Source: Dehalococcoidia bacterium (GTDB lineage: Bacteria > Chloroflexota > Dehalococcoidia > Bin125). Taken from it: a stretch of 64,000 nucleotides of DNA. Location: contig CBDBPH010000001.1 of the NCBI GenBank assembly GCA_965208665.1, forward strand, positions 131,045 through 195,044. The letters are read 5' to 3'. Shown piece after piece: positions 4,343 to 42,664 of this stretch (position 1 is its first letter; each line of letters opens with the position of its first letter). The notes beneath the pieces are model-generated. The model was not told where the DNA came from and made no database searches. It saw only the letters and a list, made by a program, of their open reading frames with translations. The position numbers were made by a program, and so were the translations under genes.

Positions 4343-5059
4343 CTAGGCGGCTTCGGCGCGGATTGGGGTTGGGATCTCGGGGTTTTGGCGGTCGGGATCG
4401 GTGAGTTGGTCGAGGAAGGCGAGGATTTGTTCGGTCGATTGGCCCTTGAGGTGGGGGAAGTGGTCGATGGCTTCGCTGATCAGGGCGTCCAGGTCGGTTG
4501 GATTGGGGAGGTGGACAGTTTCGGGGGCATTTTTTTCCTCCTGGGGCCGATCCGCGACGATCTCCTGCGCTGGACTGGAGATCGTGGGTTCGGGGTGGTC
4601 AGTTTTGTCAGTTTCGGAGGTGGATTCCGCTAGTTTCTGTGGTTCTGCCTGCGGTGCTTCATCAAAGAGGCCGGGTTGGTCGGGGCGCTGTTCGGCGCGG
4701 CGGTAGATGTCCTGGGCGGTGCGGCGGATCTCGCGGGCGAGCGCGTTGAGCTGGGTCTCTCGGCCCTCGCGGGCGCGCAGGTAGTCGACTGGCGTGAGCC
4801 GGTCGGTATTGGCGGCCACGTCGTCGTACTTGATGGCGAGCGAGAGGCGGAGGTGGAGCAGGTGCAGCGATTCGAGGAGGATGTCGTCCGCGGCGGCCGA
4901 GGCGATGCTGTTCCAGTGGGTCTCGACGAGCTGGAGGTCAGCGCGGACGGTGGCGTGCGAGACCTCGAGCTGCTTGGCGATCTGCCGCTGGGAGTTTCCG
5001 CGCTGGCGGAGGTAATGGACGCGGAGGCAGCGTTGTCGCCGCTTGGATGGGATGTGCAT
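4343..5059 (-). CDS. HTH domain protein (sigma-70 region-4-like / terminase-small-like HTH) with long acidic disordered C-terminal tail
   Basis: N-terminus LRQRGNSQRQIAKQLEVSHATVRADL is a helix-turn-helix; the rest is E/D/P/Q-rich low complexity. GGAAGG RBS 8 nt upstream of ATG at 5059. Confidence 0.45.
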   Translation of the reverse strand: MHIPSKRRQRCLRVHYLRQRGNSQRQIAKQLEVSHATVRADLQLVETHWNSIASAAADDILLESLHLLHLRLSLAIKYDDVAANTDRLTPVDYLRAREGRETQLNALAREIRRTAQDIYRRAEQRPDQPGLFDEAPQAEPQKLAESTSETDKTDHPEPTISSPAQEIVADRPQEEKNAPETVHLPNPTDLDALISEAIDHFPHLKGQSTEQILAFLDQLTDPDRQNPEIPTPIRAEAA

Positions 5060-6610: not shown

Positions 6611-7399
6611 CTACGAGCTGATGTGCGCGATCACGGCGTCGGCCGTGGCCTGGGCGTCTTCCAACTCGACGAGATGGCCGAGCCCGTCGAGCACCTGAAT
6701 CCTGCTGTTGGGCAGGCTGGAGTCGTAGACCTCGGCGACGCCCTGGGGAACGACGCGGTCGTTCTCGCCCCAGAGCAGGAGGGTCGGAGTCTCGAGTTCG
6801 GTGAGCAGATGCGGAAGCTGGCGATTGAACATCCAGGGCTTCCAGGTCAGACGCGCGGTCATCTCGCGCGAGAAGTCCCAGAGTTCCTTCAGTTCGGGGG
6901 CGGCCTCGTCGCCAAAGATGTCGGCGTAGGCCTCGTCGGAGGAGAAGCCGAGCTTCACGTACTCCTCGAACTCGTAGAAGATGACATCGGCGATCTCGCC
7001 CTCTTCGGGCTGGACGCCGGCCGCGCCGATCAGGGTGAGGCTGTCGAGGCCGTGTAGGTGCATGCAGGCGAGCTCGGCCGCAACCCAGCCGCCGAAGCCC
7101 ATGCCGACGAGGTTGGCGTCGGTGTCGATGCCCATCTTGTGGATGGCGCTGTGCAGCATGATCGCGATGTCGCGAGGGTGGCGAGCCCAAACCGGTCGCT
7201 CGGACTGTCCGTAGCCGGGCATGTCGATGGCGGTGACGGTGTGGTTTTGGGCGAGCAGGTCGTAGAACGGGATCCAACCGGGTCCTGTGGAGTGGTGCAG
7301 GACGACGATGTTGGGTCCGCTGCCGTCCTGAAGCGCGTTGACCTTGAGGCCGGAGACCTCAACGGCGATCTGTGTGTGCGTTTCTGCCTGTGTCGTCAT
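6611..7399 (-). CDS. alpha/beta hydrolase fold protein
   Basis: 262 aa; nucleophile elbow GMGFGGW (G-x-S/N-x-G-like), HHSTGPG oxyanion region, C-terminal catalytic His (GLGHLVELE). Confidence 0.7.
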   Translation of the reverse strand: MTTQAETHTQIAVEVSGLKVNALQDGSGPNIVVLHHSTGPGWIPFYDLLAQNHTVTAIDMPGYGQSERPVWARHPRDIAIMLHSAIHKMGIDTDANLVGMGFGGWVAAELACMHLHGLDSLTLIGAAGVQPEEGEIADVIFYEFEEYVKLGFSSDEAYADIFGDEAAPELKELWDFSREMTARLTWKPWMFNRQLPHLLTELETPTLLLWGENDRVVPQGVAEVYDSSLPNSRIQVLDGLGHLVELEDAQATADAVIAHISS

Positions 7400-7592
7400 A
7401 CACGTGCTCCTGACGGTGATTCCGGCGAGGTTGAGTCGGCTCGGAAGGGGTGTACGGGCGTTCCGTCGGTAGACCGAGCGGAAGAACTAGTTAGGCGCAG
7501 GCTAAGCGCCTATCGGCTCAGCGGCAACTGAGCGGGGAGACGGCGGAGCTTCAGGCGGTTGACGGTACGGCCAGTCGTAGCATTGGAGCATC

Positions 7593-10500
7593 ATGTTCGG
7601 ACTTTTTCGCCTACTCAGGCTCGCCGCCCTACGCGAATTGCGGGGCGGCTGGCTATTGATGTTCGGGGCGGCCTCGCTGCTGATCATCGCGGCCGGGCTG
7701 GTCGCGTTGCCGCTGGTCTTTCGAGCGGCCTCGGCGGACCTGGCACTTCGTGAGTTGATCGAGCAATCGCCGCGCGGGACCACCTTTGCGGACCACTCGC
7801 GCGCCTTCCGTCCGGCCAGCGCGGAGGACTTCGATTTCGTGGAGCGGGATGCGGCGGAGGCGCGCGAGCGGCATCTGGAACGGTTCCCGGGACTGGTCGG
7901 CGACACGCGGCGGATCATGGAGACTCCCGAGATCTTCGCCGGGTTCACGCGGCTCGACAACGGACTGAATGAGTCGATTCAGGCGTACCTGATGTCGTTC
8001 GAACAACTGCGGTCGAACGCGCGGCTGGTACGTGGCGATTGGGCCGGTTCGGCGGACGAGGTGGTGATCGGCTCGCGACTCGCCGAACAGCTCAACATCG
8101 ATGTCGGCAGCGTGGTCAGTTTCAGCGAGGCGATGCAGTTCGAGATCAGCGGGGTCATCGAGCCGGTTGTGGCGGATGTCACGCGGGTGCTGGCGTTCCA
8201 CTACACGGACGTCTGGTTCGAGTTGCAGTTCGATATCACGCTGGGCGGCGCCGAGGTGCCGTACTTCGGCATGTTCGCGGAGTCGGAGGCGCTGGAGCGA
8301 CTCGGGGCTCCGGTGACGCATCGGATGCGGACCGAATTGGATACGGACGCGATCAACTCCGACCAGGTTGAGGATGTGATCGAGTCTCTGGGCGCGTGGC
8401 AACAACAGCTGAGCCGACTGGAGGGTGGCTCGGCGGGCACGCTGTTGGTGGGGGCGCTGCAGTCCTTCGTACGCCAGGCGCAGTTTTCGGCCGGGCAGTC
8501 GCTGCTGGCCGGTCTGCAGATCGCTGCGGTGGCGATGTTCGGCGTCGCGCTGGTCGGCCGGGTGATGGCGCAGCGGACTCGCGTCGATCGCGAACGGCTG
8601 GCGGCTCGGGGGGCGAAGCCCTGGCAACAGGCGGGGGCGCAGGCGATGCTCGGCGGTGTCGCGGCGCTGCCGGCGGCGATTCTGGGCGCTCCATTGGCCG
8701 CGTTCGCGTTGAGTCACGCCGGACGGTTGGAGGCGGTGGCGCGTGTCTCGGGCGGTGAGCCGTTCGATACGCGGCTGACAGTGGAGGCCTGGGGCCTGGC
8801 GATTGCGGGCGCGGTGATCGCCTGGATCGCATTTGCCGCGCCGGCCTGGTTCGATGCTCGGCAGCGGACGAATGAGCGCGTGGCGCAGGGGCGGCCACAG
8901 CGGCAGTCCCTGGTGCAACGGGCCTGGCTTGATGTGGCGCTCTTGGCGCTGGCGACGGTGCTGTTTCTGCAGTTCGAGACCGAGGCGTCGGGCGGGGCGC
9001 TTGCGGCGTTTGAGTCGGGTGGGATCAATCCGGTGCTGATGTTGAGCCCGGGACTGCTGCTGCTGGGCGCGGCGTTGACGATCATGCGGCTGGCGCCTCG
9101 AGTCTGGGGCTTCGCGGCGGCGGTGCTCTCCAGATCACCGATTCCGTCGTGGCTGTATCTCGGAGTGCTCAACGTCGCTCGGAATCCGACCGGTCCGATG
9201 TTGCTGACGGCGCTGGTTGCATTCGTCACGGCGGTGGGACTGATCTCGGCGACGTATGCGTCGACGATTCGGACCGTCGAGCGGTCGCGGATCGAGTATG
9301 AGGTCGGCTCGGACCTTCGCGGCGTGTCGATCGGCGGCAACCTGTCGAACTCGACGGTGGGCCGCGTGACGGAACCACTGCAGAGCCGTCAAGGGATTAT
9401 GGCGGCAGCGGCGTATCGCGGGATCGGTGCGATCGGCGGGGACCGCGAGGGCAGCCGCGTCGTGTTGTTGGGGCTGCAGACGAGCCGGTTATCCGAGATC
9501 GTGTCACTGGATGAGGACTTGCTGGGTACGCCGCCGGACGAGTTGTTGGCGGCGATCGAACGGGAGCCGGGGCGCGCCGGTCAGGAGTTGCCGGACGGGG
9601 CAGAGGCGCTGACGGTGCGCGTGCGCAGCGATCCCGGGAACAGCAACCTTGAACTGGCGGCGCGGGTGCTCGACGCCCGTGGGCAGGTGCACATGCGGCC
9701 GTTTCGGACGAACACGGCGTCCATCGTGGACGGGGACTGGAACACGTTTCGCGCGCCGCTGGGCGGGCTTGAGCAACCGCTGCGGATCGCCGCGATCATT
9801 CTGCGGCCGCAGGCGCGGGTCGTGAGAGCGCCGACGGGCACGTTGTACATCGACGAGTTGAACGCGCAGGTGGGGGAGCAATCCGTCGCGGTGGATGCGT
9901 TTGACGAGGATGGGCCGTGGTTGCCCGCCTCGGGCGGTGCGGGCGAGGACCGGATTTCCTTCGAGGGCGGAGGGCTGCGCTACCACTGGTCGCAACTTGC
10001 GGCGAGCGATGAGCGCATCATCGTGCGCGAGTCGCCGAACCTGCCGGTCAATGCGGCGATGGATCGAACGTCGATGGAGACCGCCGATCTGAGTGTCGGC
10101 GACATTGTGCCGATCGGGGTCAGCAACGCGAATATCCCGGTGCGGATCCAGGCGGCCGTTGATTACTTTCCGACGCTCAATCCGGCGCAGGGTGGATTCC
10201 TGATCGTGGATCTGCTGGCGCTGCGGGGGGCGGCGCTGGTCGCGGCGGTTCAGGCGGTGCTGCCGATCACGGAGGTGTGGACAGCGACTGGGACCAACGC
10301 GGGGCGTCTCGTAGCGGGCGAGTTGCTGGACGATGTGTACCTGGCCAGCACGGTGCTGGACGCGGAGGCGAAGATTGCAGCGGCGGAGGAGGATCCGTTT
10401 CGCTCGGGCGGCGCGGCTGCGTTGTTCGTGGTTGGATTCATTGGCCTTCTGATCGTAGGTTCGGCGGCGTTGATTTTCACGCTCGCCGCTGCCGGCGGGG

Positions 10501-10835
10501 AGCGTGCTCGTGAGTTTGCGCTGATGCGGACGGTCGGCTCGGGTCGCGCCGGATTGACCGCGCAGGCCGCAGTGGAGGTCAGCCTCGTGTTGGCGGCCGG
10601 TGTGGCGCTTGGTTTCGGTCTGGGGCGGGCCGTGGCGGGCGCGTTGTTGGCCTTCCTTGATGTCACGGCTGAAGGGGTGGCGGCGGCTCCGCCGACTGCG
10701 CTTTCGATCGACTGGGTGCTGGCCGGTATTGGGGTCGGGGTGATCGTGTTGTGCGCGGTGCTGGGCACGACGGCGATTTCACGCTGGGCGACGGGCCGTG
10801 AAGCTGCTCCTCTGCTGCGGGAGGGGGCCGACTGA
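7593..10835 (+). CDS. giant FtsX-like ABC transporter permease (two FtsX 4-TM modules, large extracytoplasmic domains), 1080 aa
   Basis: N-terminal TM segment, two extracytoplasmic domains each followed by a 3-4 helix hydrophobic cluster; C-terminus EFALMRTVGSGRAGL... resembles the FtsX/MacB permease signature. Confidence 0.65.
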   Translation: MFGLFRLLRLAALRELRGGWLLMFGAASLLIIAAGLVALPLVFRAASADLALRELIEQSPRGTTFADHSRAFRPASAEDFDFVERDAAEARERHLERFPGLVGDTRRIMETPEIFAGFTRLDNGLNESIQAYLMSFEQLRSNARLVRGDWAGSADEVVIGSRLAEQLNIDVGSVVSFSEAMQFEISGVIEPVVADVTRVLAFHYTDVWFELQFDITLGGAEVPYFGMFAESEALERLGAPVTHRMRTELDTDAINSDQVEDVIESLGAWQQQLSRLEGGSAGTLLVGALQSFVRQAQFSAGQSLLAGLQIAAVAMFGVALVGRVMAQRTRVDRERLAARGAKPWQQAGAQAMLGGVAALPAAILGAPLAAFALSHAGRLEAVARVSGGEPFDTRLTVEAWGLAIAGAVIAWIAFAAPAWFDARQRTNERVAQGRPQRQSLVQRAWLDVALLALATVLFLQFETEASGGALAAFESGGINPVLMLSPGLLLLGAALTIMRLAPRVWGFAAAVLSRSPIPSWLYLGVLNVARNPTGPMLLTALVAFVTAVGLISATYASTIRTVERSRIEYEVGSDLRGVSIGGNLSNSTVGRVTEPLQSRQGIMAAAAYRGIGAIGGDREGSRVVLLGLQTSRLSEIVSLDEDLLGTPPDELLAAIEREPGRAGQELPDGAEALTVRVRSDPGNSNLELAARVLDARGQVHMRPFRTNTASIVDGDWNTFRAPLGGLEQPLRIAAIILRPQARVVRAPTGTLYIDELNAQVGEQSVAVDAFDEDGPWLPASGGAGEDRISFEGGGLRYHWSQLAASDERIIVRESPNLPVNAAMDRTSMETADLSVGDIVPIGVSNANIPVRIQAAVDYFPTLNPAQGGFLIVDLLALRGAALVAAVQAVLPITEVWTATGTNAGRLVAGELLDDVYLASTVLDAEAKIAAAEEDPFRSGGAAALFVVGFIGLLIVGSAALIFTLAAAGGERAREFALMRTVGSGRAGLTAQAAVEVSLVLAAGVALGFGLGRAVAGALLAFLDVTAEGVAAAPPTALSIDWVLAGIGVGVIVLCAVLGTTAISRWATGREAAPLLREGAD

Positions 10836-13800
10836 TGTCGCAGCAGGTGCCGACTCGACGCGGCGAAACGGCACGTGAGCTGGGCAGGCTAGCGCTGCGG
10901 CGTATCGCTTCGGCGCCCAGGCTCTCGACGGTGCTGCTGATCGGGGCCCTGTTAGCGGTGGGTCTGGCGAGCAGCGCACCGATCTTCATCGAAGCGGTGC
11001 GTGATCTGGGGCTGCGGCAGACACTCGCCGATGCCGAACCCGCGTCGCTGGACCTGCGATTCAACCAGACCAACGTGACCGCGGACTCGACGTCGGTTGA
11101 CGACGTTGAGTCGCTCATCCATGAGGAGGTCACGGCGGCGGCCTCGTCGCTGACGGTTGGCCGGATGACGGCTCTGCGAACCGGCGGATACATCTTGCGA
11201 ACGGACGATCAGCCGTTCGATCCGCCGGACGCCGATCACGCCACATTCGTCGCGCAGAGCGACGTGTCGGACCTCTCGGAAATCGTGGCCGGGCGTAGAC
11301 CGGAGGCAACGACCGAGCTTTTGGAGGTGATGGTCGAGCGGAGGCAGGCGCGGGAGTTTGGTCTCGACGTTGGGGACGAACGATTGGCCCAGCCGTTCTG
11401 GCTGGGGACCGAGCATGAGACTCGCGTGCGGATCGTCGGCGTCATCGAGCCGTCGACCGACCAGCGGCGTTGGTCGACGCTCGATCCGCTGTTCCTACCG
11501 ATCGCTGCGCTGGACACGGAGCTGCGCTTCTGGACCACGCGGGAGGGGATTCTCGGCATTCTCGCCGAGCAGTCGCCCACGTTGCGGCTGTCGTTACTGC
11601 AGCGGTTCCGGACCGACTTGCAGGGCGCGTCGGCGGCGGAAGCGTCGGCGGCGGCCGATTCGCTGGAGCAGATGACGCGGCGGATATCGCAGTCCGTGGA
11701 CGGGATCCAGCTGGAGACGGAACTGGTCGACACGCTGGTCGGGTTCAGCCAACGTTTCCAGTTCGCCCAGTCGACGCTGTTGATGATCGTGCTGCAGCTC
11801 GTGGGCGCGGTGTTGGTCTATGCGGTGGTGGCGTCGGCGATGCTTGCCGAGCAACGCACCGAGGACACGGCGTGGCTTCGGTCGCGAGGCGCCCGGCAGC
11901 GCGACGTCGCGGTGATGCACATCGTTGAGGCCGCGATCCTGACGGCTCCGGCGATATTGCTGGGACCGTTGATCGGCATGGGTCTGGTCAGTCTGCTGGG
12001 ATACGTCCCACCTTTCGACGAGGCGCTGGCCGCTACGGGCGTGGGTCCGTTCCTGCCGGTCTCGCTGCCGATCGAGTCGTGGTACCTGGCGATCGGTGCG
12101 GGCGCGCTGGCGCTGCTGGCTCAGGCGGTGCCGACCTATCGAGCGACTCGTCAGACGATGGTCACGACCCGTCGGGAACGTGGTCGGCCGCCCGCGTCGT
12201 GGACGCAGCGCGCCTTGATCGACGCGGCCGTGGCGGCGCTGGGAGCTCTGCTGATCTTTGAACTGCAGTGGGCCGGTGACCCGATCGACTCGCCGTTGGT
12301 CGGTGAGACGCGGCTGGACTGGTTGGCAGTTGCGACACCGACCGTGTTGCTGTTCGTGGTTGGGCTGATCGTGCTGCGCTTGTTCCCGCCGACGATGCGA
12401 CTGCTGGCCCGAGTTGCTTCGCCGTGGCGCTCGCTGACGCTGTTGATGGGCGCCTGGTATCTGGGGCGCACACCGACGCACTACGCGCGGACGGTGTTGT
12501 TGCTCACGATCGCGGGTGCGCTGGCGGTGTTTGCGGCCTCGTTCCGGACGACGCTCGACACGTCCTACCACGATCGCTCGCTGCATGCAGTGGGTGCGTC
12601 GGTGCGTCTGACCGAGCCGGTCTCGGACATCGTTCCGTATGAGGAGATTGAGGAGGCCAGCGGCGCATCGGTGGCACAGATTCGGCGGATTGTGGGGGCG
12701 TTCGAAGGGGACGAAGACTCAGGTCGGCTGCAGATTGCGGCGTTGGACTCGGCGGTGGTCGCCGATCAGTTGGCCGAACAAGGGGCTGATTGGGCGTTGC
12801 CGCCGGCGGACCTGAAGGAGATTGCGATAGTGCCGAACGAAGTGCAGGGAACGGTGATTGACGACTTCGGCGGCCGCCTGGAACTACAGATTGCAGCTGC
12901 ACGGCTCGGGCAGGAGACGGTGATCGGCATCAAGGTGCTGGACGCCATTGGGCGCTATTGGTGGTACGCCATCGACACGCTCAGCCCCGCTCCGGTTCAA
13001 GATGATCCGGAGTGGCTCACCATCTCCAGCCGCTTGACGGAGGAACCGGCCGCCTATCTGCCACTGGAGGGCGCGCGGCTGATCCAGGGACAAAGCAGGT
13101 TCAGCCCGACCGTGGCGGAGCGTCCAGTCGCGCCGCTGACCCTGGTATCGCTTGACCTGGCGATCACCCGCGCCGCGGGAGAGATCGTACTTGGCGAATT
13201 GACCTACACGAGGCGTGGTGAGCGCTCCCTATTGGCCGACTTCAGCTCAGGACGCTGGGAGGCGACGCCGTTGGAGGTCGGCGAGGAACCACTGGATTTC
13301 CTCGTCGTCACCGAAGAAGGCGCACGCTATCGGTGGAATGCGATTCCATCATCTCTGCGCGGGGTGCGCTACATCGCAGACCGGGGGCCATTGCCGGCAC
13401 TGTTCTCGGCGCAGGCCATCGAACAAGGCCGGCTCAACATCGGCGAGACGGTCAAACTGCGCATCGGGCCGTCCTCGATGACGTTTCTGGTCGCGGGACA
13501 GTTTGAGACCTTCCCCAGCTACGATCCGCAGCGCGACGATCCGCTTGTGTTGATCGATCGGGCGGCGTTCATCGATCGGCTGTATGGCAGCGCGGCGGCG
13601 GGCGTGGCCCTGGCCGTGAGCAACGAACTGTGGGCTTCGGCCTCGCTGCAGCGGTGGGGCGGACTATTGGTCGAGTACGAGCTGCCGAGCCAGAGCGATG
13701 GCATCGCCACGATCGAGAGCGCCCGGGAGGAGCTTGCGGCCGACCCGCTGATCGTCGCTTCGTGGAATGGCGTCTTCATCGGCGCGCTGGCGGCGGTGGC

Positions 13801-14182
13801 GATCGCGTCGGCGTTCGGGCTGGTGGTGTTGACAGCCGTGACGGCGCAGGCGCGGCGGGTGGAGTTCGCCGTCTGTCAGAGCGTCGGGATGAGCATGCGC
13901 CAGATCCTGGGTCTGATCGCGCTGGAACAACTGATCATCATCGCGATTGGACTGGGAGCAGGGTTGATCGTGGGGACGCAGGCCGGCGCGGTGTTGTTGG
14001 ACTTCTTCGCGCTCACGCCGGATGGTCGGGACGTGGTGCCGGCGCTGCAGTTCATCATCGACTGGCCGGGCGTCGGCATCCTGTTCGGGGCGTTGGCGGC
14101 GCTGTTCGCGCTCAATCTGGGCGCGTTCCTGTGGTTCCTGAGGCGGATCGAGCTACACGGGGCGCTGCGGCTGGCGGCGTAG
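10835..14182 (+). CDS. giant FtsX-like ABC transporter permease, paralogue, 1115 aa
   Basis: Start overlaps the previous stop (ATGA). Same architecture; C-terminal RRVEFAVCQSVGMSMRQIL... FtsX motif. Confidence 0.65.
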   Translation: MSQQVPTRRGETARELGRLALRRIASAPRLSTVLLIGALLAVGLASSAPIFIEAVRDLGLRQTLADAEPASLDLRFNQTNVTADSTSVDDVESLIHEEVTAAASSLTVGRMTALRTGGYILRTDDQPFDPPDADHATFVAQSDVSDLSEIVAGRRPEATTELLEVMVERRQAREFGLDVGDERLAQPFWLGTEHETRVRIVGVIEPSTDQRRWSTLDPLFLPIAALDTELRFWTTREGILGILAEQSPTLRLSLLQRFRTDLQGASAAEASAAADSLEQMTRRISQSVDGIQLETELVDTLVGFSQRFQFAQSTLLMIVLQLVGAVLVYAVVASAMLAEQRTEDTAWLRSRGARQRDVAVMHIVEAAILTAPAILLGPLIGMGLVSLLGYVPPFDEALAATGVGPFLPVSLPIESWYLAIGAGALALLAQAVPTYRATRQTMVTTRRERGRPPASWTQRALIDAAVAALGALLIFELQWAGDPIDSPLVGETRLDWLAVATPTVLLFVVGLIVLRLFPPTMRLLARVASPWRSLTLLMGAWYLGRTPTHYARTVLLLTIAGALAVFAASFRTTLDTSYHDRSLHAVGASVRLTEPVSDIVPYEEIEEASGASVAQIRRIVGAFEGDEDSGRLQIAALDSAVVADQLAEQGADWALPPADLKEIAIVPNEVQGTVIDDFGGRLELQIAAARLGQETVIGIKVLDAIGRYWWYAIDTLSPAPVQDDPEWLTISSRLTEEPAAYLPLEGARLIQGQSRFSPTVAERPVAPLTLVSLDLAITRAAGEIVLGELTYTRRGERSLLADFSSGRWEATPLEVGEEPLDFLVVTEEGARYRWNAIPSSLRGVRYIADRGPLPALFSAQAIEQGRLNIGETVKLRIGPSSMTFLVAGQFETFPSYDPQRDDPLVLIDRAAFIDRLYGSAAAGVALAVSNELWASASLQRWGGLLVEYELPSQSDGIATIESAREELAADPLIVASWNGVFIGALAAVAIASAFGLVVLTAVTAQARRVEFAVCQSVGMSMRQILGLIALEQLIIIAIGLGAGLIVGTQAGAVLLDFFALTPDGRDVVPALQFIIDWPGVGILFGALAALFALNLGAFLWFLRRIELHGALRLAA

Positions 14183-14185
14183 CGG

Positions 14186-14755
14186 CTAGCCGAGGCGGAA
14201 TGGCGGGTAGCGGTCGGTGATCAGGAGGAAGGCGTAGGCCTCGACGCGCAGGATCCAGCGCTCGACGTTGAGCATGAAGGTGAACAACGGTCGTGGGTAG
14301 GTTCCGCTGAACAGGATCGCGAACCAGGCGATCAACACGACGATGTTCTGGATGCCGACCAGCACCCAGATGATGACGTAGTGCGGAATTGCGAGGAACC
14401 ACTTGACCAGCGGCAGCCATCGGTTGAGCTGGGCTGCGTCGGGATAGTCGAGGTCGAGGCGAACCGACTGTTCCTCGTCGGTTGATGGGTAGCGGTCGGT
14501 CATCAGGTTGAGGTACGCATAAACCCGGTTGTGGAAGCGGGTGGCCTCGAGATTGAAGTCGAACCACCAGCGCGGGTACTTGCGGCGCACGACCAGCACC
14601 AGAGCGACGGGCGTACAGAGCATCGGCGGGATGAACCAGAGCAGGACGACGACGGGGAGTGCGAGAATCGGTCGGAGCAGCGTCGAGATGCGATCGAGTG
14701 TTTGCGGGTACTCGATATCGAGACGGGCCGGGTAGTCGTCGGCGGTGCGTTGCAT
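14186..14755 (-). CDS. DUF4389 domain membrane protein
   Basis: YPARLDIEYPQTLDR...LPLVKWFLAIPHYVIIW... matches the DUF4389 pattern (two TM hairpins, conserved AIPHY). Confidence 0.55.
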   Translation of the reverse strand: MQRTADDYPARLDIEYPQTLDRISTLLRPILALPVVVLLWFIPPMLCTPVALVLVVRRKYPRWWFDFNLEATRFHNRVYAYLNLMTDRYPSTDEEQSVRLDLDYPDAAQLNRWLPLVKWFLAIPHYVIIWVLVGIQNIVVLIAWFAILFSGTYPRPLFTFMLNVERWILRVEAYAFLLITDRYPPFRLG

Positions 14756-14836
14756 GGCGAAGCTCCCTGAACGAACGGAATGCGCGGGGCCGGTGCGCGC
14801 AGGCTATCGATTATGGCAAGCGGGAGCGGATGGCGA

Positions 14837-15391
14837 TCAGGGAGCGATGCCGAGCGTGCGCTGGATCTGGCGGACATGGAAGAGCTGGTGATCGGCGGCG
14901 GTGAGCGCGATCGTTCGCAGGGACATATCGAGTACATCGCCGTCCAATTCGATGTTGGCCGGTTCGCGGAGTTGGTCGGATGACAGGTCGGCAAGCAGGC
15001 GCTCGGTGTCTTCGCGGACGCTGGTCAGGGCCCATCGCAGTTCTGGCAGCGATGCTTCAGACTCGGTGTCGGGCAGGTTGACGCCGCCGACGGGCGGGAT
15101 CGGGAGGTGCGGCGCGACCTCGCGGCGCAGCAGCATGAGCTGCGGATGGAGCCAACGCTCGGAGTGGACGACGTGCAGGAGGATTTCGCGAACAGACCAT
15201 TCGGCGGGCCCGAGGCGTTCGTCGAGGCGGTCATCGGTGGAGGCGTCGAGCAACGATCGCAGTTCTTCGAAGTTCTGGGCGAGCGCGGCCTGGACGTTTA
15301 CAGAATCAGCGATGATGTTTACCTCAACCCGTATCCAACGCGTGGGGCGTCGCGCACAGTGTCGATGAACGACGGCGGCGGGACAACTCAC
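14837..15391 (-). CDS. DinB/YfiT-like (DinB_2) family protein
   Basis: 184 aa four-helix-bundle-like protein with conserved His (ILLHVVHSERWLHP, DHQLFHVRQI); start codon uncertain. Confidence 0.45.
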   Translation of the reverse strand: MSCPAAVVHRHCARRPTRWIRVEVNIIADSVNVQAALAQNFEELRSLLDASTDDRLDERLGPAEWSVREILLHVVHSERWLHPQLMLLRREVAPHLPIPPVGGVNLPDTESEASLPELRWALTSVREDTERLLADLSSDQLREPANIELDGDVLDMSLRTIALTAADHQLFHVRQIQRTLGIAP

Positions 15392-15422
15392 TGATCAGCG
15401 AACGCAGAAGGCGGCCGGCCTG

Positions 15423-16307
15423 ATGGCCCGAGTTCGTGAGATCCCGTCCCGAGCCGAACAGCTCGCGCTTGAACCGACAGTTTCCACAGCGCATCGCGCG
15501 GAACTCGCGAAGGGCGCGTCGGAGTGGGACGCGAAGCAGTTCTTCGACGCGCATGAGACGTGGGAAGAGATCTGGCAGGTTGAGCGTCGCGCGATCCGCA
15601 GCTTCTACCAGGGGCTGATCTTGCTGGCCGCCGGCCTGCATCACTGGACCGGAACGCATCGGCCGCGCGGAGTGAGAATCAAGCTGTCATCCGGAATTGA
15701 GCGTCTGGCGCCGTATGCGCCGTCGTATCTGGGAGTTGACGTGTCGACGACGATCGGCGATGCGGCGGCTCTGCTGCGCCAGGCGCCCGACGATCCAGCC
15801 GCGTTGGCAGACACGCCGCTGGACACCTTCCCACCGTTCCGTTGGGCTGTGACGGACGGCGGCAGGCTCGGAGCCCTGCGCGTGCGGCGATTGCGCGCGG
15901 CGGCGCAGTTGCCCACGCGGGGCTCCGAGCTGTCTTCGGGCCTGGACCTGTATGCAGACCTGTCGGAGTTGGGCGGGTCGCTCGGTCTCACGCAGATGCC
16001 GCAACCGGTGCCGACCGGCATTGCCTGCGCACCGCCGCCGGGGTACGAAATCCAGATCCGCCCGCGTTCGGGGCTGACGCGCAGAGGAGTGGAGATTGGC
16101 TGGGGGACTGTCGATGCGGACTATCGCGGTGAGTTGTTGGTCTCGATGTCGTTGCGCGGGCCGTCGGGACGCGGCTACCGCGTCAATCACGGTGATCGGA
16201 TTGCGCAGCTCGTCGTGGCGCCGGTAGCGCTGACTGCCGTGGAGGAAGTGGACGAACTGGACGACACCGCCCGCGGCTCCGGCGGGTTCGGATCGACGGG
16301 CCGCTGA
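15423..16307 (+). CDS. dut: DUF309-dUTP diphosphatase fusion protein
   Basis: N-terminus FFDAHETWEEIWQ...QGLILLAAGLHHW is DUF309. C-terminal half carries all five trimeric dUTPase motifs (SSGLDLYA, RSGL, GTVDADYRGEL, GDRIAQLV, RGSGGFGSTGR). Confidence 0.75.
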   Translation: MARVREIPSRAEQLALEPTVSTAHRAELAKGASEWDAKQFFDAHETWEEIWQVERRAIRSFYQGLILLAAGLHHWTGTHRPRGVRIKLSSGIERLAPYAPSYLGVDVSTTIGDAAALLRQAPDDPAALADTPLDTFPPFRWAVTDGGRLGALRVRRLRAAAQLPTRGSELSSGLDLYADLSELGGSLGLTQMPQPVPTGIACAPPPGYEIQIRPRSGLTRRGVEIGWGTVDADYRGELLVSMSLRGPSGRGYRVNHGDRIAQLVVAPVALTAVEEVDELDDTARGSGGFGSTGR

Positions 16308-16310
16308 TCG

Positions 16311-16682
16311 ATGACGGTCGCGGCGATCGCTTCGATTGCGCTCGGCGGCGCGGCCGGATCCGTGCTGCGCTACGTCCTCAATCGCTGGATCGGTCAGCCC
16401 GACGGCTTGCCGCTGGGGATCCTCGTGGTGAACCTGAGCGGGACGCTGGTGCTGGGACTTGTGGCGACACTGTTCCTCGAGCGACTCGGGGTGTCGGACA
16501 ACATGCGTCTGGCGATCACGGTGGGGTTGCTGGGCGGATTCACCACGTTTTCGACGGTATGGCTGGACACGCTGCATCTGCTCAACGGCGGACGTTGGGT
16601 ATGGGCGTTGACGAATCTGCTCGTGTCGGCGGTGGGCGGATTGGCGGCGGCGTGGCTGGGCCAGCAGCTCGCTCGTCTTTAG
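16311..16682 (+). CDS. crcB: fluoride-specific ion channel FluC/CrcB
   Basis: 123 aa, 4 TM, GGAAGSVLRY...GLLGGFTTFSTV (GxxTTFSTF signature of CrcB); starts 4 nt after the dut stop. Confidence 0.85.
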   Translation: MTVAAIASIALGGAAGSVLRYVLNRWIGQPDGLPLGILVVNLSGTLVLGLVATLFLERLGVSDNMRLAITVGLLGGFTTFSTVWLDTLHLLNGGRWVWALTNLLVSAVGGLAAAWLGQQLARL

Positions 16683-16801
16683 CCGCGACACGTATCTTCG
16701 ACACGTAACCTCGAAGGCAGCCTCGACCCGGTTTGGTGCTGCGCCCTCAAGGCGGGAATGTGTATAGAGTGGCTACAGGCGACGGGGCGGTTGTGCCACT
16801 G

Positions 16802-18196
16802 ATGTCCCAAATACGTACGTATCCTCGACGGCGTGGCGTCGGGTTCGTCGCTCTGTTTGCCATCTTGCTCATTTGCTCATTCATCCTCTCGGCGTGTGGC
16901 TTGTTCGGCGGCGACGACGAGCAGCCGGATGTCGTCGAGCGCCCGGACACGGCGGCTGAGACGACGCAGACCAGCGAGCCCACGGCCGCGGCGGCAACGA
17001 CTCAATCCGACGCACAGCAGCAACAGACCGCTCAACCTACCGAGGCCGTGAGGGTGACGACATCGTCATCGCAGGACGATGCCGCGCAGCAGGAGCAAGC
17101 AGCTGCTGACGTCGAGGAGCCCGAGACGGACCCCAGCATCTACATCGTGCAGCCGGGCGACACGCTGGCCCAGATCGCGAACCGATTCAACGTGCGTATC
17201 GATGACCTGATCACCCTGAACGGCATTCAGGACCCCGACGTTCTGCATGTGGGACAAGAACTGAGGATTCCGGGTCAGGAACCGGCCAGCACTGAATCGG
17301 AAGATGCGGAACCGGATCAAGCGGCTCAGGACGAGCAGCAAGAGACAGAGGACGAGCAGATAGAGCCGCCGAGTGTCGAGCTGCCGACAGTCGCGGTTCC
17401 GGCAGCCACGCCGACGCAGGTCTCGTACACCCAGTTCCCGCAGCCGGGACCGGAGCAGACCACCGACACGATTCCCGATCCGCCGACCAACTTCCTGCAA
17501 TACGGTGCGGCCGCATTGCCGTGGTTGCACGGGATCAACGAGGTGGAGCCGATCATCGAGCTGTTCAAGGCCTGGCCGATGCCGCCATTGGCTGTAGGCC
17601 ACGATCGCATCGTGCTCGTCGACACCACCGACGACGGCCAGTTCTCCGCTTCGATCATCTACACCGATCCGAACTCGTTCGGCGCTGCCGTCCCGTACTC
17701 GAACCTGGTCGTCTATGACCCGGTGCCGGGAGATCCGTCGAAGTATCGGATTGCTTACGACCACGCGCTGAGCTATGCGCGGGAGGTTCAGGGGTTGCAG
17801 CAGCTCGTCGACGTCGATCTCACCGGTGACGCCGTCCGCGACCTTGCGTTCCGCGAGATCACGTGCGACGAGTCGGGGTGCGTGAGCAGTTTCTATGTGC
17901 TGTCCTCGACCGGTGACGGCTACCGGACCGTGACGAGCACGGCTGCGCAGGTGGGCGCCGTTTCAGCGATAGAGATCCTGGATCGCACCGGCGATGGGGT
18001 TCCCGACATCGTGGTCAATGGCCTGGCGATGGATGAGTCGGTGGCGTCGCGCTACACCTTCGTGTTCACGGTCCAGGGCGACAGCCTGGTCGAAGCGCTG
18101 AGGATCTCGTTGGACGGCAATTCGGTGGCCGAGACGGGCGCAGGGAACAGTGGGGATGCCGAGGGGCAGGAGGAAGACGCGCTGGAGGAGGAGTAG
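16802..18196 (+). CDS. LysM domain lipoprotein with low-complexity linker and C-terminal domain of unknown function
   Basis: Signal/lipobox FILSACG; LysM YIVQPGDTLAQIANRFNVRIDDLITLNGIQDPDVLHVGQELRIPG; ATG at 16802 preferred over GTG at 16733. Confidence 0.6.
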   Translation: MSQIRTYPRRRGVGFVALFAILLICSFILSACGLFGGDDEQPDVVERPDTAAETTQTSEPTAAAATTQSDAQQQQTAQPTEAVRVTTSSSQDDAAQQEQAAADVEEPETDPSIYIVQPGDTLAQIANRFNVRIDDLITLNGIQDPDVLHVGQELRIPGQEPASTESEDAEPDQAAQDEQQETEDEQIEPPSVELPTVAVPAATPTQVSYTQFPQPGPEQTTDTIPDPPTNFLQYGAAALPWLHGINEVEPIIELFKAWPMPPLAVGHDRIVLVDTTDDGQFSASIIYTDPNSFGAAVPYSNLVVYDPVPGDPSKYRIAYDHALSYAREVQGLQQLVDVDLTGDAVRDLAFREITCDESGCVSSFYVLSSTGDGYRTVTSTAAQVGAVSAIEILDRTGDGVPDIVVNGLAMDESVASRYTFVFTVQGDSLVEALRISLDGNSVAETGAGNSGDAEGQEEDALEEE

Positions 18197-18339
18197 CCGC
18201 AACCTGCGGCAAACTGCCGGGTTCGCAGAGCCTGATTGCCCGCTGCCATCGGGAGGCATAGCCTCAGACGGGTAGCTCCCGCAGCCCGAGCATGGTTCGA
18301 GTCGTGTTGGCCGGCTGCGTCGAGCGGGTGATGTAGCCG

Positions 18340-20439
18340 ATGTCCCTCGTCAGCCGTCCGTCCAGGCGATTCGGCACCCGGTCGGCGCATCTCTTCTGGC
18401 GTCTGCCGCTGGTCGGCTGGGTTCGCGTCCCGCGCAACCTGGCGCCACTGTTGCTTGCGGTGGCGGTCGGCCTGGCAGCGGGATTCGCGGCAGTGGCGCT
18501 GAGCGCGCTGGTCGACGGTCTGACCATGGTGTTCGACGAGCTCACGTCGCTGCTCGACAATCTGGCAGGCGGCTGGACGCTGATGCTGGTTCCGGCGATC
18601 GCGGCGATTCCGGTGGCGTTCGTCGTTTCGCGGGTTGCCTCGGAATCGCAGGGCGCCGGGGTGCCTTATGTCATGGTGGCAGTGGAACGCGCCGGCGGAT
18701 TCGTGCGACCGATCATTGCTCCGGCCAAGCTGGTCGCGACCGGATTTACGCTGGGCGGCGGCGGCGCCGCAGGACGCGAGGGTCCGATTGTCCTGATCGC
18801 CGCGTCGCTGGCCTCGACGATCGGACGGCTGGCGAAGCAACCGTCCGACATGCTGGTCTTGATGGTCGCGGCGGCGGCGGCGGGCGGAATCTCGGCCACA
18901 TTCAACACCCCAATCGCCGGCACATTCTTCGCGCTCGAGGTGGTGCTGCGGCGGTTCAACGTGCGCAACTTCACGATTGTGGTCGTTGCCGCGGTGGTCG
19001 CGAACATCGTCGCGGTGGCGTTCTACGGGGACTCGGCCGGACTCGATCTGCCCGACTTCGACATCAACAGCAGTTGGGAACTGTTCCTGCATGCGATCGT
19101 CGGCATCTCCGCGGCGATCGCCGGGATTCTCTTTGTGCGCACCCGCTTCTTCACCGAGGACGTGTTTGAGTTTCTGGGCGTGTCGATGTCGGTCCGGCCG
19201 ATTCTGGGTCTGTTCGGCGTCGGTGTGCTGGCATTGATCGAATCGAACATTCTGGGGTCGGGGCTGGACCAGATCCGGATCTTTGCCGAAGGTGAGACGG
19301 CCGTCTCGACGCTGGCGATCCTGATGGTGCTCAAGCTGATTGCGGCGTCACTAACGATTGGATCGGGCGCATCGGGCGGGGCGTTTGCTCCGCTGCTGTT
19401 CGTGGGGGCGACGTTGGGCGCACTGATGGGCGCGGGCTTCGAGTCGGCGCTGCCGAGCATCGTGGGGCCGACCGGTACGTATGTCGTGGTCGGCATGGCG
19501 GCGGTCTTTGCCGCCGCTGCGCGCGCGCCGTTGACCTCGCTGTTCATCGTTTTCGAGCTCAGCGGATACTCGCTGATCCTGCCGTTGATGACAGCGGTGG
19601 CGCTTGCCGCGGCGCTGGCCCAGCTGTTGACCCGCGACACGATCTACAACGTCCGCCTGCGCCGAGCCGGACTGGATGTCCAGGAGGAATCTGCGCCATC
19701 GCCGCTGGACGATCTGACCGTGGCGGCGACGATGCGCACGGACACACCGATCGTGTCGAGGCTGGCGACGATCGAGGATCTGGCCAACGCGATGAGCCAA
19801 TCGCGCGGGAACGTGGTGGCGGTGGCGGACCAGCGCAACCGCTTCATCGGGTTGGTGACGGCGACCGACGTGGCGTCGGCGGTGGAGCGCGGCGAGATGG
19901 ATCGGCGGGCGTTTGATCTGGCGGTGGTCGCGCCGGTCTTCGTGCACCCCGACGACAACCTGCGCTATGCGCTCTCGGTTCTGGTCGATCACGATGTTCG
20001 CCAGTTGCCGGTCGTCGCCCGCGAGGACGAGACGCGCTTGATGGGCATGCTGACGCAGCGGGATGTCCTGCGCGAAGTCGCTCAGCCGAGTGACCGGGAC
20101 TCGGGTCAGCGGTCCGCCCCAGCACCGGTCCGGCGATTGGTCGGGGCGATTGAGATCGAGGCGCGCGTGGAACCGGGTTCACAGGCCGAGTCGAGCATGG
20201 TCTCGCAGTTGCCGCTACCTGAGGCGTCCGTCATTACGGCGATCCACCGACGCGGTGAAATCGTGATCCCGCGAGGGAACGTGAAGCTGTTGGCGAATGA
20301 TCTGGCGATCGTGTTATCGGTGCCGCCGGAGGAGGCGACGGTGCGGTCGCTGTTCATCAACCACTCGACACAGTCGCGGAACAACTGGTGGTTCTTGCCG
20401 CACGCTCCGCCGTCGCCCAACGACGAATCGCAGCGTTGA
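18340..20439 (+). CDS. ClC-family chloride channel/antiporter with C-terminal CBS pair and TrkA-C-like domain
   Basis: ClC selectivity motifs GAGVP, GREGPIVLIAASL, GGAFAPLLFVGA; C-terminal CBS-like repeats and RGEIVIPRGNVKLLANDLAIVL (TrkA-C). Confidence 0.8.
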   Translation: MSLVSRPSRRFGTRSAHLFWRLPLVGWVRVPRNLAPLLLAVAVGLAAGFAAVALSALVDGLTMVFDELTSLLDNLAGGWTLMLVPAIAAIPVAFVVSRVASESQGAGVPYVMVAVERAGGFVRPIIAPAKLVATGFTLGGGGAAGREGPIVLIAASLASTIGRLAKQPSDMLVLMVAAAAAGGISATFNTPIAGTFFALEVVLRRFNVRNFTIVVVAAVVANIVAVAFYGDSAGLDLPDFDINSSWELFLHAIVGISAAIAGILFVRTRFFTEDVFEFLGVSMSVRPILGLFGVGVLALIESNILGSGLDQIRIFAEGETAVSTLAILMVLKLIAASLTIGSGASGGAFAPLLFVGATLGALMGAGFESALPSIVGPTGTYVVVGMAAVFAAAARAPLTSLFIVFELSGYSLILPLMTAVALAAALAQLLTRDTIYNVRLRRAGLDVQEESAPSPLDDLTVAATMRTDTPIVSRLATIEDLANAMSQSRGNVVAVADQRNRFIGLVTATDVASAVERGEMDRRAFDLAVVAPVFVHPDDNLRYALSVLVDHDVRQLPVVAREDETRLMGMLTQRDVLREVAQPSDRDSGQRSAPAPVRRLVGAIEIEARVEPGSQAESSMVSQLPLPEASVITAIHRRGEIVIPRGNVKLLANDLAIVLSVPPEEATVRSLFINHSTQSRNNWWFLPHAPPSPNDESQR

Positions 20440-20910: not shown

Positions 20911-21693
20911 GTGCCTCACCATCGAACGCTGGCGCCGCCGCTGCGCCTGGGCGGCGAACTGCCGGTCATTCACCGGGAGCTGCAGCGACACTACGACTCG
21001 CTCTACGACCTGCTCCTGAATGGCCGGGCCCCACGCGACGCCCGACCGGTTCTGGACGTCGGAACGGGCGATGGGCTCGCGCTGGCAGCGATCACGATGG
21101 GCACGCCGCTTCACGGCGTCGCGATCGACGCGGCCTCACCCGGGCACTGGTTGGGGCCGGCGGATTGGGGCGTCGTCCGTGCCGATGCGCAGCGTTTGCC
21201 GTTCGCCGATCGGAGCTTCAACTCGGCGTTGCTGGTCGACGTCTTCGAGTGGTTGCGACATCCCACGGTGACGCTGGCCGAGATCGCGCGCGTCAACAGC
21301 GGCCCGATCCTGCTGGTACAGACCGACTGGGAAGGGCTCTGGTTCCAGGTCGACGAGGCTGAGCACGGCCGCGACCTGGTGAGCGCCTTTACGAAGGGGG
21401 CGCCGGAGAACCTGCGGAGCCGGATTCGATCGCGCGGCGCGGAGGCGGGCCTGACGGTCGACGCGATTTCGAACGTCACCATCAGTGCCGACAGCCTGCA
21501 GCCGGGCTCGCTGGCCTGGGACACCCTGGAGGCCATCCGGCGCTACCTGGTGCTGGAATCGGCCCAGATCCGAGCGCGGCGGTTCGACGACTGGCGTCGC
21601 GAGCTGCAATACGCCGAGTCGGAAGGTCAATTCAAGATGTCGGTACGCAGAGTGGTCGCCGTGTTGAGTCGCAACGGCGCTGACCGCGCCTAG
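20911..21693 (+). CDS. class I SAM-dependent methyltransferase
   Basis: VLDVGTGDGLALAAI (motif I), RLPFADRSFNSALLVDVFEWL (motif II/III). GTG start at 20911 proposed to avoid overlap with upstream gene; an ATG alternative exists at 20854. Confidence 0.6.
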   Translation: MPHHRTLAPPLRLGGELPVIHRELQRHYDSLYDLLLNGRAPRDARPVLDVGTGDGLALAAITMGTPLHGVAIDAASPGHWLGPADWGVVRADAQRLPFADRSFNSALLVDVFEWLRHPTVTLAEIARVNSGPILLVQTDWEGLWFQVDEAEHGRDLVSAFTKGAPENLRSRIRSRGAEAGLTVDAISNVTISADSLQPGSLAWDTLEAIRRYLVLESAQIRARRFDDWRRELQYAESEGQFKMSVRRVVAVLSRNGADRA

Positions 21694-22589
21694 TCACGCT
21701 CTCGCGATGCGCCGTGGACATGGCCTGCGCGATGTTCGTGCTCGTCCATGTGTAGCTGCAGCTCGTCGGCGAGACGCAAGGTGTGGTGATCGCCGGTGTC
21801 GTCCTCGTCGGTATGGACGTCTCCCCTGGAGAAGATCGCCAGCTCGCGGCCGAACGTACGGCGCAGTATCTCTTCGGTGAGAACCTCCGTGGGAGGGCCC
21901 TGGGCAACGACCCCGCCCCCGGTGGCGTTGACGCAGATCACCTGGGCGTAGTGCTCGATCACGGTCGACAGATCGTGCGTGGTCATGATCACGGACGTGC
22001 CGAGGTCGGTCAGTTCGCAGAGCACGTCGAAGAGTTGGTCGTCGGAGACGGCGTCGAGTGCGGCGGAGGGCTCGTCGAGCAGCAGGATTCTCGGCTGCCT
22101 AGCCAGGGCTCGCGCGATCAGGGCGCGCTTGCGTTGGCCGCCGGAGAGTTCGTTGATCTGCCGGTGCTGCAGGTCCTCAACATCCATCATCGCCATCGCG
22201 CGGTCAATAGCGATGCGATCCTCCTGCGAGCGGATGAGACGTCCGATGCGGCGCGTCCAGCTGAACTGGTAGCGCCCCATTTCGACGAGTTCACGAACAG
22301 TCAGCGGGAAACGCCAATCGACGTTGCTGACCTGTGGCATGTAACCCAGGTAGGCGCGTGCTTCGCTGGGCGACTCGCCGCCCACCGTGACCTGGCCCTG
22401 GGACGGAGACAGCAGGCCGGCGATGGTCTTGAGCAACGTGCTCTTGCCCGAACCGTTGCCTCCGATGATGCCGGTGAAGACGCCGCCCGGAATGTTCAGG
22501 GTGAGGTGTTCAAAGACGCGATGGCCGCCGTAGCCCACGGTCACATCGCGCAGTGCCACCTCGGCACCGGACACCGGAGCAATCGTCAT
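21690..22589 (-). CDS. metal-type ABC transporter ATP-binding protein (ZnuC/BtuD-like) with His-rich C-terminal tail
   Basis: Walker A GGNGSGKST, Q-loop, signature LSGGQRKR, Walker B LLLDEP, H-loop, then HTDEDDTGDHHTLRLADELQLHMDEHEHRAGHVHG. ATG at 22589 (MTIAPVSG...); the longer ORF to 22910 overlaps the divergent gene. Confidence 0.8.
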   Translation of the reverse strand: MTIAPVSGAEVALRDVTVGYGGHRVFEHLTLNIPGGVFTGIIGGNGSGKSTLLKTIAGLLSPSQGQVTVGGESPSEARAYLGYMPQVSNVDWRFPLTVRELVEMGRYQFSWTRRIGRLIRSQEDRIAIDRAMAMMDVEDLQHRQINELSGGQRKRALIARALARQPRILLLDEPSAALDAVSDDQLFDVLCELTDLGTSVIMTTHDLSTVIEHYAQVICVNATGGGVVAQGPPTEVLTEEILRRTFGRELAIFSRGDVHTDEDDTGDHHTLRLADELQLHMDEHEHRAGHVHGASRERD

Positions 22590-36658: not shown

Positions 36659-36807
36659 TTGGGGCCTCCGGTGGTCAGGGTAAGGGCAGTCGGGCGTTAG
36701 CAGAGCCGGTCCCGGTTCAAGCGGTGAGTAGCACGTTCCGGGAGCCAAGCATCGACCATCCGTTCGTAGATAGTAGACTAGCGACAGAGACGAGGAGGCT
36801 GACAACG

Positions 36808-37665: not shown

Positions 37666-37685
37666 GTGGCTGAGTGAGGGGAGGG

Positions 37686-37727
37686 GGCCCGTCCCCGAGC
37701 GAGTCGGGGAACGGACGGGGGCTCTGC
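37686..37727 (+). terminator. putative terminator hairpin after DUF2806-like gene
   Basis: Imperfect GC-rich inverted repeat GGGGGCCCGTCCCCGA-GCGAGT-CGGGGAACGGACGGGGGC 20 nt after the stop. Confidence 0.3.
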
Positions 37728-37836
37728 TTGAGGCTTCGATGAGGGGGACGATGTCGTCGAAGTTGGTGGTGGCTCGAACGGTGTCGAGGTCGTAGAAGCG
37801 CTGTAGGGTAGTCGGCTGATGCTTTTGGAGCGCTGA

Positions 37837-38720: not shown

Positions 38721-38744
38721 GGATCTTCCCGGGACTGGGGTGCT

Positions 38745-39110: not shown

Positions 39111-39127
39111 GGGTGAATGGAGTTGGG

Positions 39128-39885: not shown

Positions 39886-39897
39886 AGAGACGGGCAC

Positions 39898-40383: not shown

Positions 40384-40395
40384 GGCGTCGGCAGC

Positions 40396-42621: not shown

Positions 42622-42664
42622 TATCGGGGCTCCAGAGTTCGTCCTGGCGTCCACTGGTCGTGCG

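Follow-up and report, generated by a model that had tools for sequence, protein, structure and literature searches.

A tandem pair of giant permease genes, P1 and P2, with no LolD/MacB-type ATPase gene in their vicinity, lies in a 64,000-nucleotide stretch of DNA (the window, meaning the whole stretch analysed) from a Dehalococcoidia bacterium of the phylum Chloroflexota (assembly GCA_965208665.1, contig CBDBPH010000001.1, positions 131,045 to 195,044). The pair had been singled out in an earlier reading of the sequence (the original prediction), and our analysis confirms that observation and extends it to a lineage-wide trait, for which the most likely explanation is an ordinary one, namely, a split operon whose ATPases act in trans. 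P1 and P2 are paralogues that resemble YbbP and fall into the type VII (MacB/FtsX) class of ATP-binding cassette (ABC) systems. Each forms a complete pseudo-dimeric membrane unit, in which two linker helices connect the two four-helix FtsX modules and stalk helices carry the two extracytoplasmic domains, and both belong to a large YbbP-like Chloroflexota family that was previously uncharacterised. Type VII ABC systems are defined by the coupling of cytoplasmic ATP hydrolysis to work outside the membrane, and here one Dehalococcoidia lineage cleanly separates the permeases from their two ATPase genes. The coordinates of the features discussed below are collected in Table 1.

The two adjacent open reading frames (ORFs) have exactly the positions and the lengths, 1080 and 1115 amino acids (aa), that had been assigned to them. 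Their products are paralogues with 24% identity, and the GC content at third codon positions (GC3) is 0.81–0.82 in both genes, the same as in the neighbouring genes. Regarding the junction, the proposed translational coupling was upheld, but the four-base ATGA overlap was not: the context reads cTGATGt, with the P1 stop codon TGA (10833–10835) sharing one base with the P2 start codon ATG (10835–10837), an arrangement that indicates coupling. Either this 1-nucleotide (nt) overlap or a 1-nt gap (TGAGATG) was found at the junction in 45 of the 46 loci examined. Pfam agrees with the original prediction that an alpha/beta hydrolase gene (Abhydrolase_1/6) and a DUF4389 gene flank the pair, and, given that both are on the opposite strand, the operon consists of P1 and P2 only.

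Pfam detected two FtsX domains (PF02687) per protein and no other domain; the two whole-protein scores, 38 and 64 bits, exceed the cut-off of 25.5. Considering that only FtsX was found, neither P1 nor P2 carries a nucleotide-binding domain of its own, in accordance with the original prediction. The layout that it had proposed for each protein, comprising two FtsX modules and two extracytoplasmic domains, was also recovered, by Pfam in both, by an AlphaFold2 (AF2) model of P2 and by the hydropathy profile of P1; only P2 was modelled, from an alignment of 61 sequences. The P2 model, with a predicted local distance difference test score (pLDDT) of 84 and a predicted template modelling score (pTM) of 0.74, contains 10 transmembrane (TM) helices arranged as 4+2+4, with long helices flanking the extracytoplasmic domains (H28-66/H297-350 and H547-586/H971-1006) and short cytoplasmic helices within the TM2–3 and TM8–9 loops. 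The first extracytoplasmic domain is less conserved (0.65–0.82) than the membrane core, and the second contains an all-beta insert at about aa 665–848 (nt 12827–13378). The hydropathy profile of P1 likewise fits 10 TM helices and places the extracytoplasmic domains at about aa 45–300 and 560–940.

When the P2 model was searched against the PDB with Foldseek, the top match was YbbP of E. coli (9ge6_A; E = 1.4e-17), which aligned over the full length with 1109 aligned columns, followed by MacB, BceB, LolC/E, HrtB and YtrF. The whole-chain matches, for which the aligned part of P2 is unspecified, include the MacB-type periplasmic-domain structures 3is6 and 5c59. Sequence searches of solved structures yielded only marginal matches (E = 0.02–0.2), and the NCBIfam YbbP equivalog NF041854 matched 46 residues of P1 with 18 bits, against a cut-off of 999, and gave no match to P2.

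E. coli YbbP has 10 TM helices and binds two YbbA subunits via coupling helices located in the TM2–3 and TM8–9 loops (PMC12646458). P2 resembles the YbbAP(-TesA) structures (PDB 9GE6/9GE7) in its 4+2+4 helix arrangement, in the placement of the outer domains between TM1 and TM2 and between TM7 and TM8, and in the positions of the coupling helices, the first of which matches coupling helix 1 of YbbP (PMC12646458). The two proteins, however, share only 12–13% identity in the structure-based alignment, and P1 and P2 are about 300 aa longer than YbbP, with the all-beta insert in domain 2. There are also two tandem paralogous permeases here, compared with one in YbbAP, and no ybbA-like ATPase gene in their operon; the relatives described below use two different ATPases, whereas YbbA forms a homodimer. 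A TesA-like partner is likewise absent, the divergent neighbour being a cytoplasmic-looking alpha/beta hydrolase. We considered the YbbAP-TesA analogy for this hydrolase and rejected it: the protein lacks a signal peptide and belongs to the PF00561/PF12697 family, and the neighbour is absent in one sub-clade of the lineage (that of locus L002). TesA itself is an SGNH-type hydrolase.

More widely, BceAB and MacB/LolCDE/FtsEX share with P1 and P2 the FtsX four-helix module, the stalk helices, an extracytoplasmic domain and the mechanotransmission architecture (PMC5985334). They differ in that BceB has a single extracytoplasmic domain, MacB has a fused ATPase, and LolC/E and FtsX are single four-helix units. 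To our knowledge, the ATPase of type VII ABC systems (MacB, LolCDE, FtsEX, BceAB and YbbAP) is always either fused to the permease or co-encoded with it.

Within the window, a six-frame motif scan found a Walker A motif and an ABC signature together in one gene only (21690–22589). Neither Pfam, run on the larger ORFs of the window, nor an ABC ATPase profile, run on all ORFs of at least 100 aa, revealed a second ABC ATPase. The best NCBIfam matches of this single ATPase were MntA, AztA and FecE, and it scored about 90 bits with a LolD-type profile, compared with 300–430 bits for the ATPases encoded downstream of the permeases in distant relatives. The motif, Pfam, profile and NCBIfam scans thus agree with the original prediction that no MacB-type ATPase is encoded nearby and that the closest ATPase is of the metal-import class. 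This gene adjoins one for a TroA-like binding protein, and none of the window's ORFs scanned with Pfam was recognised as an ABC-3 or FecCD permease. An ORF on the minus strand (23627–24457), also adjoining the binding-protein gene, encodes a 276-aa multi-pass membrane protein without a Pfam or NCBIfam match, and it might be the divergent permease of the metal-type ATPase.

We then compared 79 distinct related loci, taken with up to 10 kb of flank each and including those from a genome scan with a 10-sequence alignment, in which every ORF was searched with permease and ABC ATPase profiles. The P2 homologues come from Chloroflexota, mostly from metagenome-assembled genomes (MAGs) of Dehalococcoidia, and record names suggest that several of these MAGs are sponge-derived and at least one is marine. 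Fifty loci with 36–94% identity to P2 (L001, L002 and L008–L054) constitute the lineage of the window. The tandem pair is whole and kept in 49 of them, the exception being a 4 kb contig with the P2 end only (L051), and in none of these 49 did the ATPase profile detect a LolD/MacB-type ATPase within 10 kb. The absence noted in the window is, therefore, a property of the entire lineage. The only ABC ATPase found at these loci is the same metal-type gene at the same relative position, again with about 90 bits, and it lies 7–9 kb downstream of the pair in about 35 related loci. Two sub-clades of the lineage differ wholly in their flanks, and the gene pair is the sole conserved unit.

The distant relatives (L004–L007 and L055–L080; 25–31% identity to P2) show a different gene order, permease(s)-ATPase-ATPase, with both ATPase genes directly downstream. 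This order was found in all 25 distant loci of the genome scan with sufficient downstream sequence; L066 shows the first ATPase alone because its contig ends 28 bases past that gene. The downstream ATPases score 300–430 bits, and their best NCBIfam matches are LolD, MacB and FtsE. These loci carry one or two permeases, in tandem or divergent, whereas the lineage of the window always has the tandem pair. Most of the distant permeases match P2 with 25–31% identity over 98–99% of the length (E 1e-66 to 1e-98), and a few over only about half its length. These Chloroflexota loci with giant FtsX permeases and two ATPases are the nearest homologues outside the lineage of the window, and they share with it the coupling motifs described below, but they differ in the directly downstream, sometimes fused (~560 aa), ATPases, which are found in 0 of the 49 whole-pair loci of the window's lineage. 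P2 is the counterpart of the ATPase-adjacent permease of the distant loci, and P1 has no clear counterpart. Given this correspondence, the ancestral unit likely consisted of one or more permeases and two different ATPases, and it is likely, judging from gene order, that the lineage of the window lost the linkage between them.

The first ATPase of the distant relatives has a conserved C-terminal extension of ~70 aa (EY.LVD..GRLQIPR...) and a two-residue insert (WQQTGRNL), and Pfam matches on fragments assign the extension to AbrB/MazE (PF04014) or MraZ (PF02381). In many Anaerolineae, both ATPases are fused in one protein of ~560 aa. Clustering of the flanks of 28 ATPase-linked loci revealed no universal accessory gene, only synteny within sub-groups. 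One subgroup (L057–L080) encodes a ~250-aa protein with one N-terminal TM helix (for example, L057 5733–6503) beside a divergent upstream permease, and this protein, together with a convergent kinase-like ORF after the ATPases, is syntenic in nine loci of that subgroup only. A further locus, L003, contains a lone giant FtsX permease (10001–13375; 25% identity to P2) downstream of an HflX-like GTPase gene, with no second permease and no ATPase nearby, and may represent an independent case of ATPase unlinking.

The conservation of the pair points to retained function. Of the 50 loci of the lineage, 46 have both frames intact, each exceeding 1000 aa, and in three of the remaining four the pair is truncated by the end of a contig or broken at a single place. 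The ratio of nonsynonymous to synonymous substitution rates (dN/dS) of P1 and P2 is 0.07–0.23 in comparisons with closer relatives (at least 67% identity), the range for P1 being 0.07–0.19, and it rises to 0.32–0.34 (0.32 for P1) against L001, the most distant relative tested (59% identity for P1), where synonymous sites are near saturation. These ratios argue that both genes are under purifying selection and functional.

Across the 46 loci, the membrane core and the cytoplasmic loops are more conserved (0.85–0.97) than the outer domains (0.5–0.8), and the 30-aa bin that holds coupling helix 2 has a conservation of 0.93. In the 61-sequence alignment, which spans ATPase-linked and ATPase-less groups and has 20 invariant columns in total, L348, R351 and G352 of coupling helix 1 are invariant, as is G1018, just past coupling helix 2, while R1007, E1010 and Q1023 are nearly so. 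The LRSRGA motif is identical in the ATPase-linked and the ATPase-less permeases. Such a pattern in the loops would be expected were an ATPase still docking at the coupling helices of P2, but it falls short of proof, given the role of these loops in the fold. The part of the original prediction holding that such permeases need an ATPase is, thus, favoured by the invariant docking motifs and by the ATPases of the relatives, but it had overstated the puzzle, as the operon has probably just lost the linkage.

We consider it likely that P1 and P2 work as a type VII ABC system and that their ATPases, encoded by genes that became unlinked, act in trans. The loss of ATPase linkage from the operon is the economical reading because the distant relatives keep their ATPases and the docking motifs are invariant. 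We know of no trans-encoded shared ATPase described for type VII permeases. In other transporters, such as the mycobacterial Mce systems with MceG and the sugar importers with MsiK/MsmK, the ATPases are encoded apart and shared between systems. These set a precedent for permease operons powered in trans, although they belong to different ABC classes from P1 and P2; MceG of the mycobacterial Mce transporters is treated in a published account (PMC9947336).

In the more distant relatives, the motor is encoded by two non-identical LolD-type ATPase genes that follow the permease directly. In the lineage of the window, these genes would have been split from the permease operon, and the subunits would be supplied from another locus. 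Two cytoplasmic ABC ATPase subunits would dock on the two coupling helices in the TM2–3 and TM8–9 loops, and ATP binding and hydrolysis would push these helices, so that the stalk helices zip and unzip and the extracytoplasmic domains perform work outside the membrane. Such work might consist of extracting or expelling a hydrophobic, membrane or envelope compound, or of controlling a partner protein. We infer the location of the ATPases elsewhere and their docking, and we derive each of these steps by analogy with YbbAP, MacB and LolCDE, following the mechanotransmission model put forward for MacB-type systems (PMC5985334) and YbbAP (PMC12646458).

Several results weigh against this reading. 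The trans ATPase was found neither in the 64 kb window nor in the 10 kb flanks of the 49 loci. Three wider searches, which reach only the best-ranked matches, count neither for nor against it. In the first, a profile of the first ATPase, built from four distant loci, was run against a set of 5.8 billion proteins; the matches listed were all fused double ATPases of ~560 aa, from Anaerolineae and comparable groups, with no protein from the lineage of the window among them. A profile of its C-terminal domain gave 721 matches, the top 120 of which were short fragments, and again none of the matches listed belonged to the lineage; two on long contigs were frameshift pieces inside permease-permease-ATPase-ATPase loci. 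A metagenome scan with an alignment of the first ATPase, which relied on generic ABC patterns and was dominated by generic ABC ATPases, found this domain in 6 of the 80 loci listed, none of them tied to the lineage. The conservation of the coupling helices could partly reflect fold constraint rather than ATPase docking, and complete and stable unlinking across a whole lineage is somewhat unusual, given the tight linkage in the other relatives. On the other hand, the window itself contains a second scattered ABC system, an ATPase and a TroA-like binding protein without a recognisable permease, and the 23 kb locus L002 encodes an SBP_bac_5 binding protein and two BPD_transp_1 permeases (14594–18598) with no ABC ATPase. 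With ABC parts scattered in this way, unlinking is unsurprising in these genomes.

The pair could instead be independent of any ATPase, working as a passive or differently energised envelope device, such as a scaffold or receptor for partners outside the cell, or a unit that is driven by ligand binding or by P1 and P2 acting on each other. The lack of a LolD-type ATPase within 10 kb at 49 loci, including two sub-clades with unrelated flanks, agrees with this proposal, as do the status of the gene pair as the only conserved unit, its constant duplication and coupling here, where ATPase-linked relatives can have a single permease, and the lineage-specific beta-sandwich inserts of the outer domains. 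Nevertheless, the ATPase-contacting motifs of the coupling helices are invariant and lie among the most conserved segments, and unlinked ABC components occur elsewhere in these genomes. We are not aware of any MacB/FtsX-fold protein shown to function without an ATPase. We regard an ATPase-independent device as unlikely, and it retains this small share of probability since the trans ATPase was not located. Still more doubtful is the idea that the metal-type ATPase of the window drives P1 and P2. It is the sole ABC ATPase of the window, no ABC-3 or FecCD permease of its own was found there, and its position relative to the pair is kept in about 35 related loci; yet it is of the MntA/AztA/FecE rather than the LolD/MacB class and is encoded on the other strand, next to the TroA-like binding protein, with seven unrelated genes between it and the pair. 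It also has no counterpart in the sub-clade of L002, where the pair is kept at 36% identity and the 10 kb flanks contain no ABC ATPase (the related L053, a contig of 6.6 kb, has little besides the pair). The membrane protein encoded at 23627–24457 could, moreover, be the real permease of that ATPase.

About as improbable is that the cognate ATPase genes are close to the pair and were missed, either as very divergent sequences or just beyond the sampled flanks, which reach 10 kb at the related loci, while the window covers 7.6 kb upstream and 50 kb downstream of the pair. The profile, however, is sensitive enough to pick up the unrelated metal-type ATPase (about 90 bits), and the operon is bounded on both sides by opposite-strand genes; any gene at a distance above 10 kb would be classed as unlinked and, therefore, falls under the in-trans explanation. 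The least credible proposal is that the genes are decaying remnants, permeases on their way to becoming pseudogenes after the loss of their ATPase genes. The absence of ATPase genes nearby and a fragmented duplicate locus (L054) are in its favour, but intact frames in 46 of the 50 loci, the low dN/dS in the closer comparisons, the conserved start context and gene junction, and the retention of the pair while the lineage diverged to 36% identity speak against it, so that purifying selection and conservation exclude gene decay for practical purposes. Locus L054 (CAUVXV020000009.1) has the same isolate identifier as L050 (OY820591.1), in which the pair is intact, and the heavy fragmentation of the L054 copy probably reflects assembly artefacts or erroneous frameshifts, not a genuine pseudogene.

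If the ATPases indeed act in trans, annotation pipelines and operon-based transporter counts misjudge such systems, and the lineage offers a natural test of the specificity of permease-ATPase pairing. If no ATPase were used, the definition of the type VII family would change: a lineage-wide pair under purifying selection that uses no ABC ATPase would comprise the first type VII permeases without a nucleotide-binding partner, or with a non-ABC source of energy, an outcome to which we assign a low probability. The conserved gene context, in the flanks of the lineage of the window and of the 28 ATPase-linked loci, gives no clue to the substrate.

Table 1. Coordinates of the P1/P2 permease genes, their parts and surrounding features. 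Positions are those of the window, except in the last row, where they are those of the respective locus.
Feature	Position	Strand	Basis or remark
Alpha/beta hydrolase flanking gene (Abhydrolase_1/6)	6611-7399	-	Pfam
Conserved intergenic DNA block	7485..7528	-	Alignment of 32 distinct leaders, no indels
Conserved block abutting the P1 ATG, GTCGTAGCATTGgAGCATC	7571..7592	+	Conserved where the surrounding sequence is not
Permease P1	7593..10835	+	1080 aa; ORF and translation
P1/P2 stop/start overlap TGATG, 1 nt	10833..10837	+	Indicates translational coupling
Permease P2, YbbP-like fused type VII ABC permease	10835..14182	+	1115 aa
P2 extracytoplasmic domain 1, aa 74-294, alpha/beta, TM1-TM2	11054..11716	+	AF2 secondary structure
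P2 coupling helix 1, aa 345-353, AWLRSRGA, TM2-TM3 cytoplasmic loop	11867..11893	+	Model, alignment
P2 extracytoplasmic domain 2, aa 590-959, TM7-TM8	12602..13711	+	
P2 coupling helix 2, aa 1008-1016, TM8-TM9 loop	13856..13882	+	Model, alignment
DUF4389 flanking gene	14186-14755	-	Pfam
Only ABC ATPase of the window, metal/siderophore importer class	21690..22589	-	Motif scan, Pfam, NCBIfam
TroA-like binding protein beside the metal-type ATPase	22648-23544	+	
First ATPase with C-terminal extension (distant relatives)	L004 16189-17196, L005 10217-11137, L006 9851-10753, L007 4727-5593, L055-L080		

Upstream of P1, the two adjacent hairpins described in the original prediction are both present in the 193-nt leader where it had placed them, but the suggestion that they might be regulatory gained no support. 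We rejected them as regulatory RNA: the leader showed no folding advantage over shuffled sequence (z = -0.57), no Rfam family was matched, and pairing and covariation were no better than in controls. In 32 distinct leaders from related loci, the share of cells that pair is only 19% for hairpin 2 and 63% for hairpin 1, whose covariation does not exceed that of the shuffled controls. Both hairpins lie inside the conserved intergenic block, with loops that fall on invariant stretches of DNA always 17 nt apart. The block consists of AACTAGTT (7485–7492), AGGCTAA (7499–7505), 17 variable nt and GGCAAC (7523–7528); all seven bases of AGGCTAA and the GCAA are invariant in the 32 leaders, and the same block is found in L008–L049. 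On the minus strand, it reads TTGCCn-17-TAGCCT, a layout resembling -35 and -10 elements and facing the hydrolase gene, although it resembles the E. coli consensus only weakly and was not called by a generic sigma-70 scan. The block may be regarded as a putative promoter of the divergent hydrolase gene; an operator, or some other signal at the DNA level, is just as likely. The invariance of AGGCTAA exceeds the needs of a plain -10 element.

Immediately before the P1 start codon lies another conserved block, which reads GTCGTAGCATTGnAGCATCATG (7571–7595) when extended through that codon. It includes the hexamer TAGCAT (7578–7583), ending 9 nt before the P1 ATG, which, by its position, may be the -10 element of a transcript that lacks a leader or has only a short one. 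Considering this short distance and the lack of an obvious Shine-Dalgarno sequence at the P1 start, the P1 mRNA may be near-leaderless.

Elsewhere in the window, the GC content falls to 0.58–0.60 around 36–38 kb and 40–42 kb, in a region (35015–42744) that may have been acquired horizontally. The low-GC stretch adjoins a gene for a DNA methylase fused to an Mrr-like nuclease domain (35015–36805, minus strand), as well as one for a 782-aa protein with a CarboxypepD_reg domain. In the syntenic locus L001, an MmeI-type restriction-modification gene occupies the place where the window has a small helix-turn-helix (HTH) gene (4343–5059).

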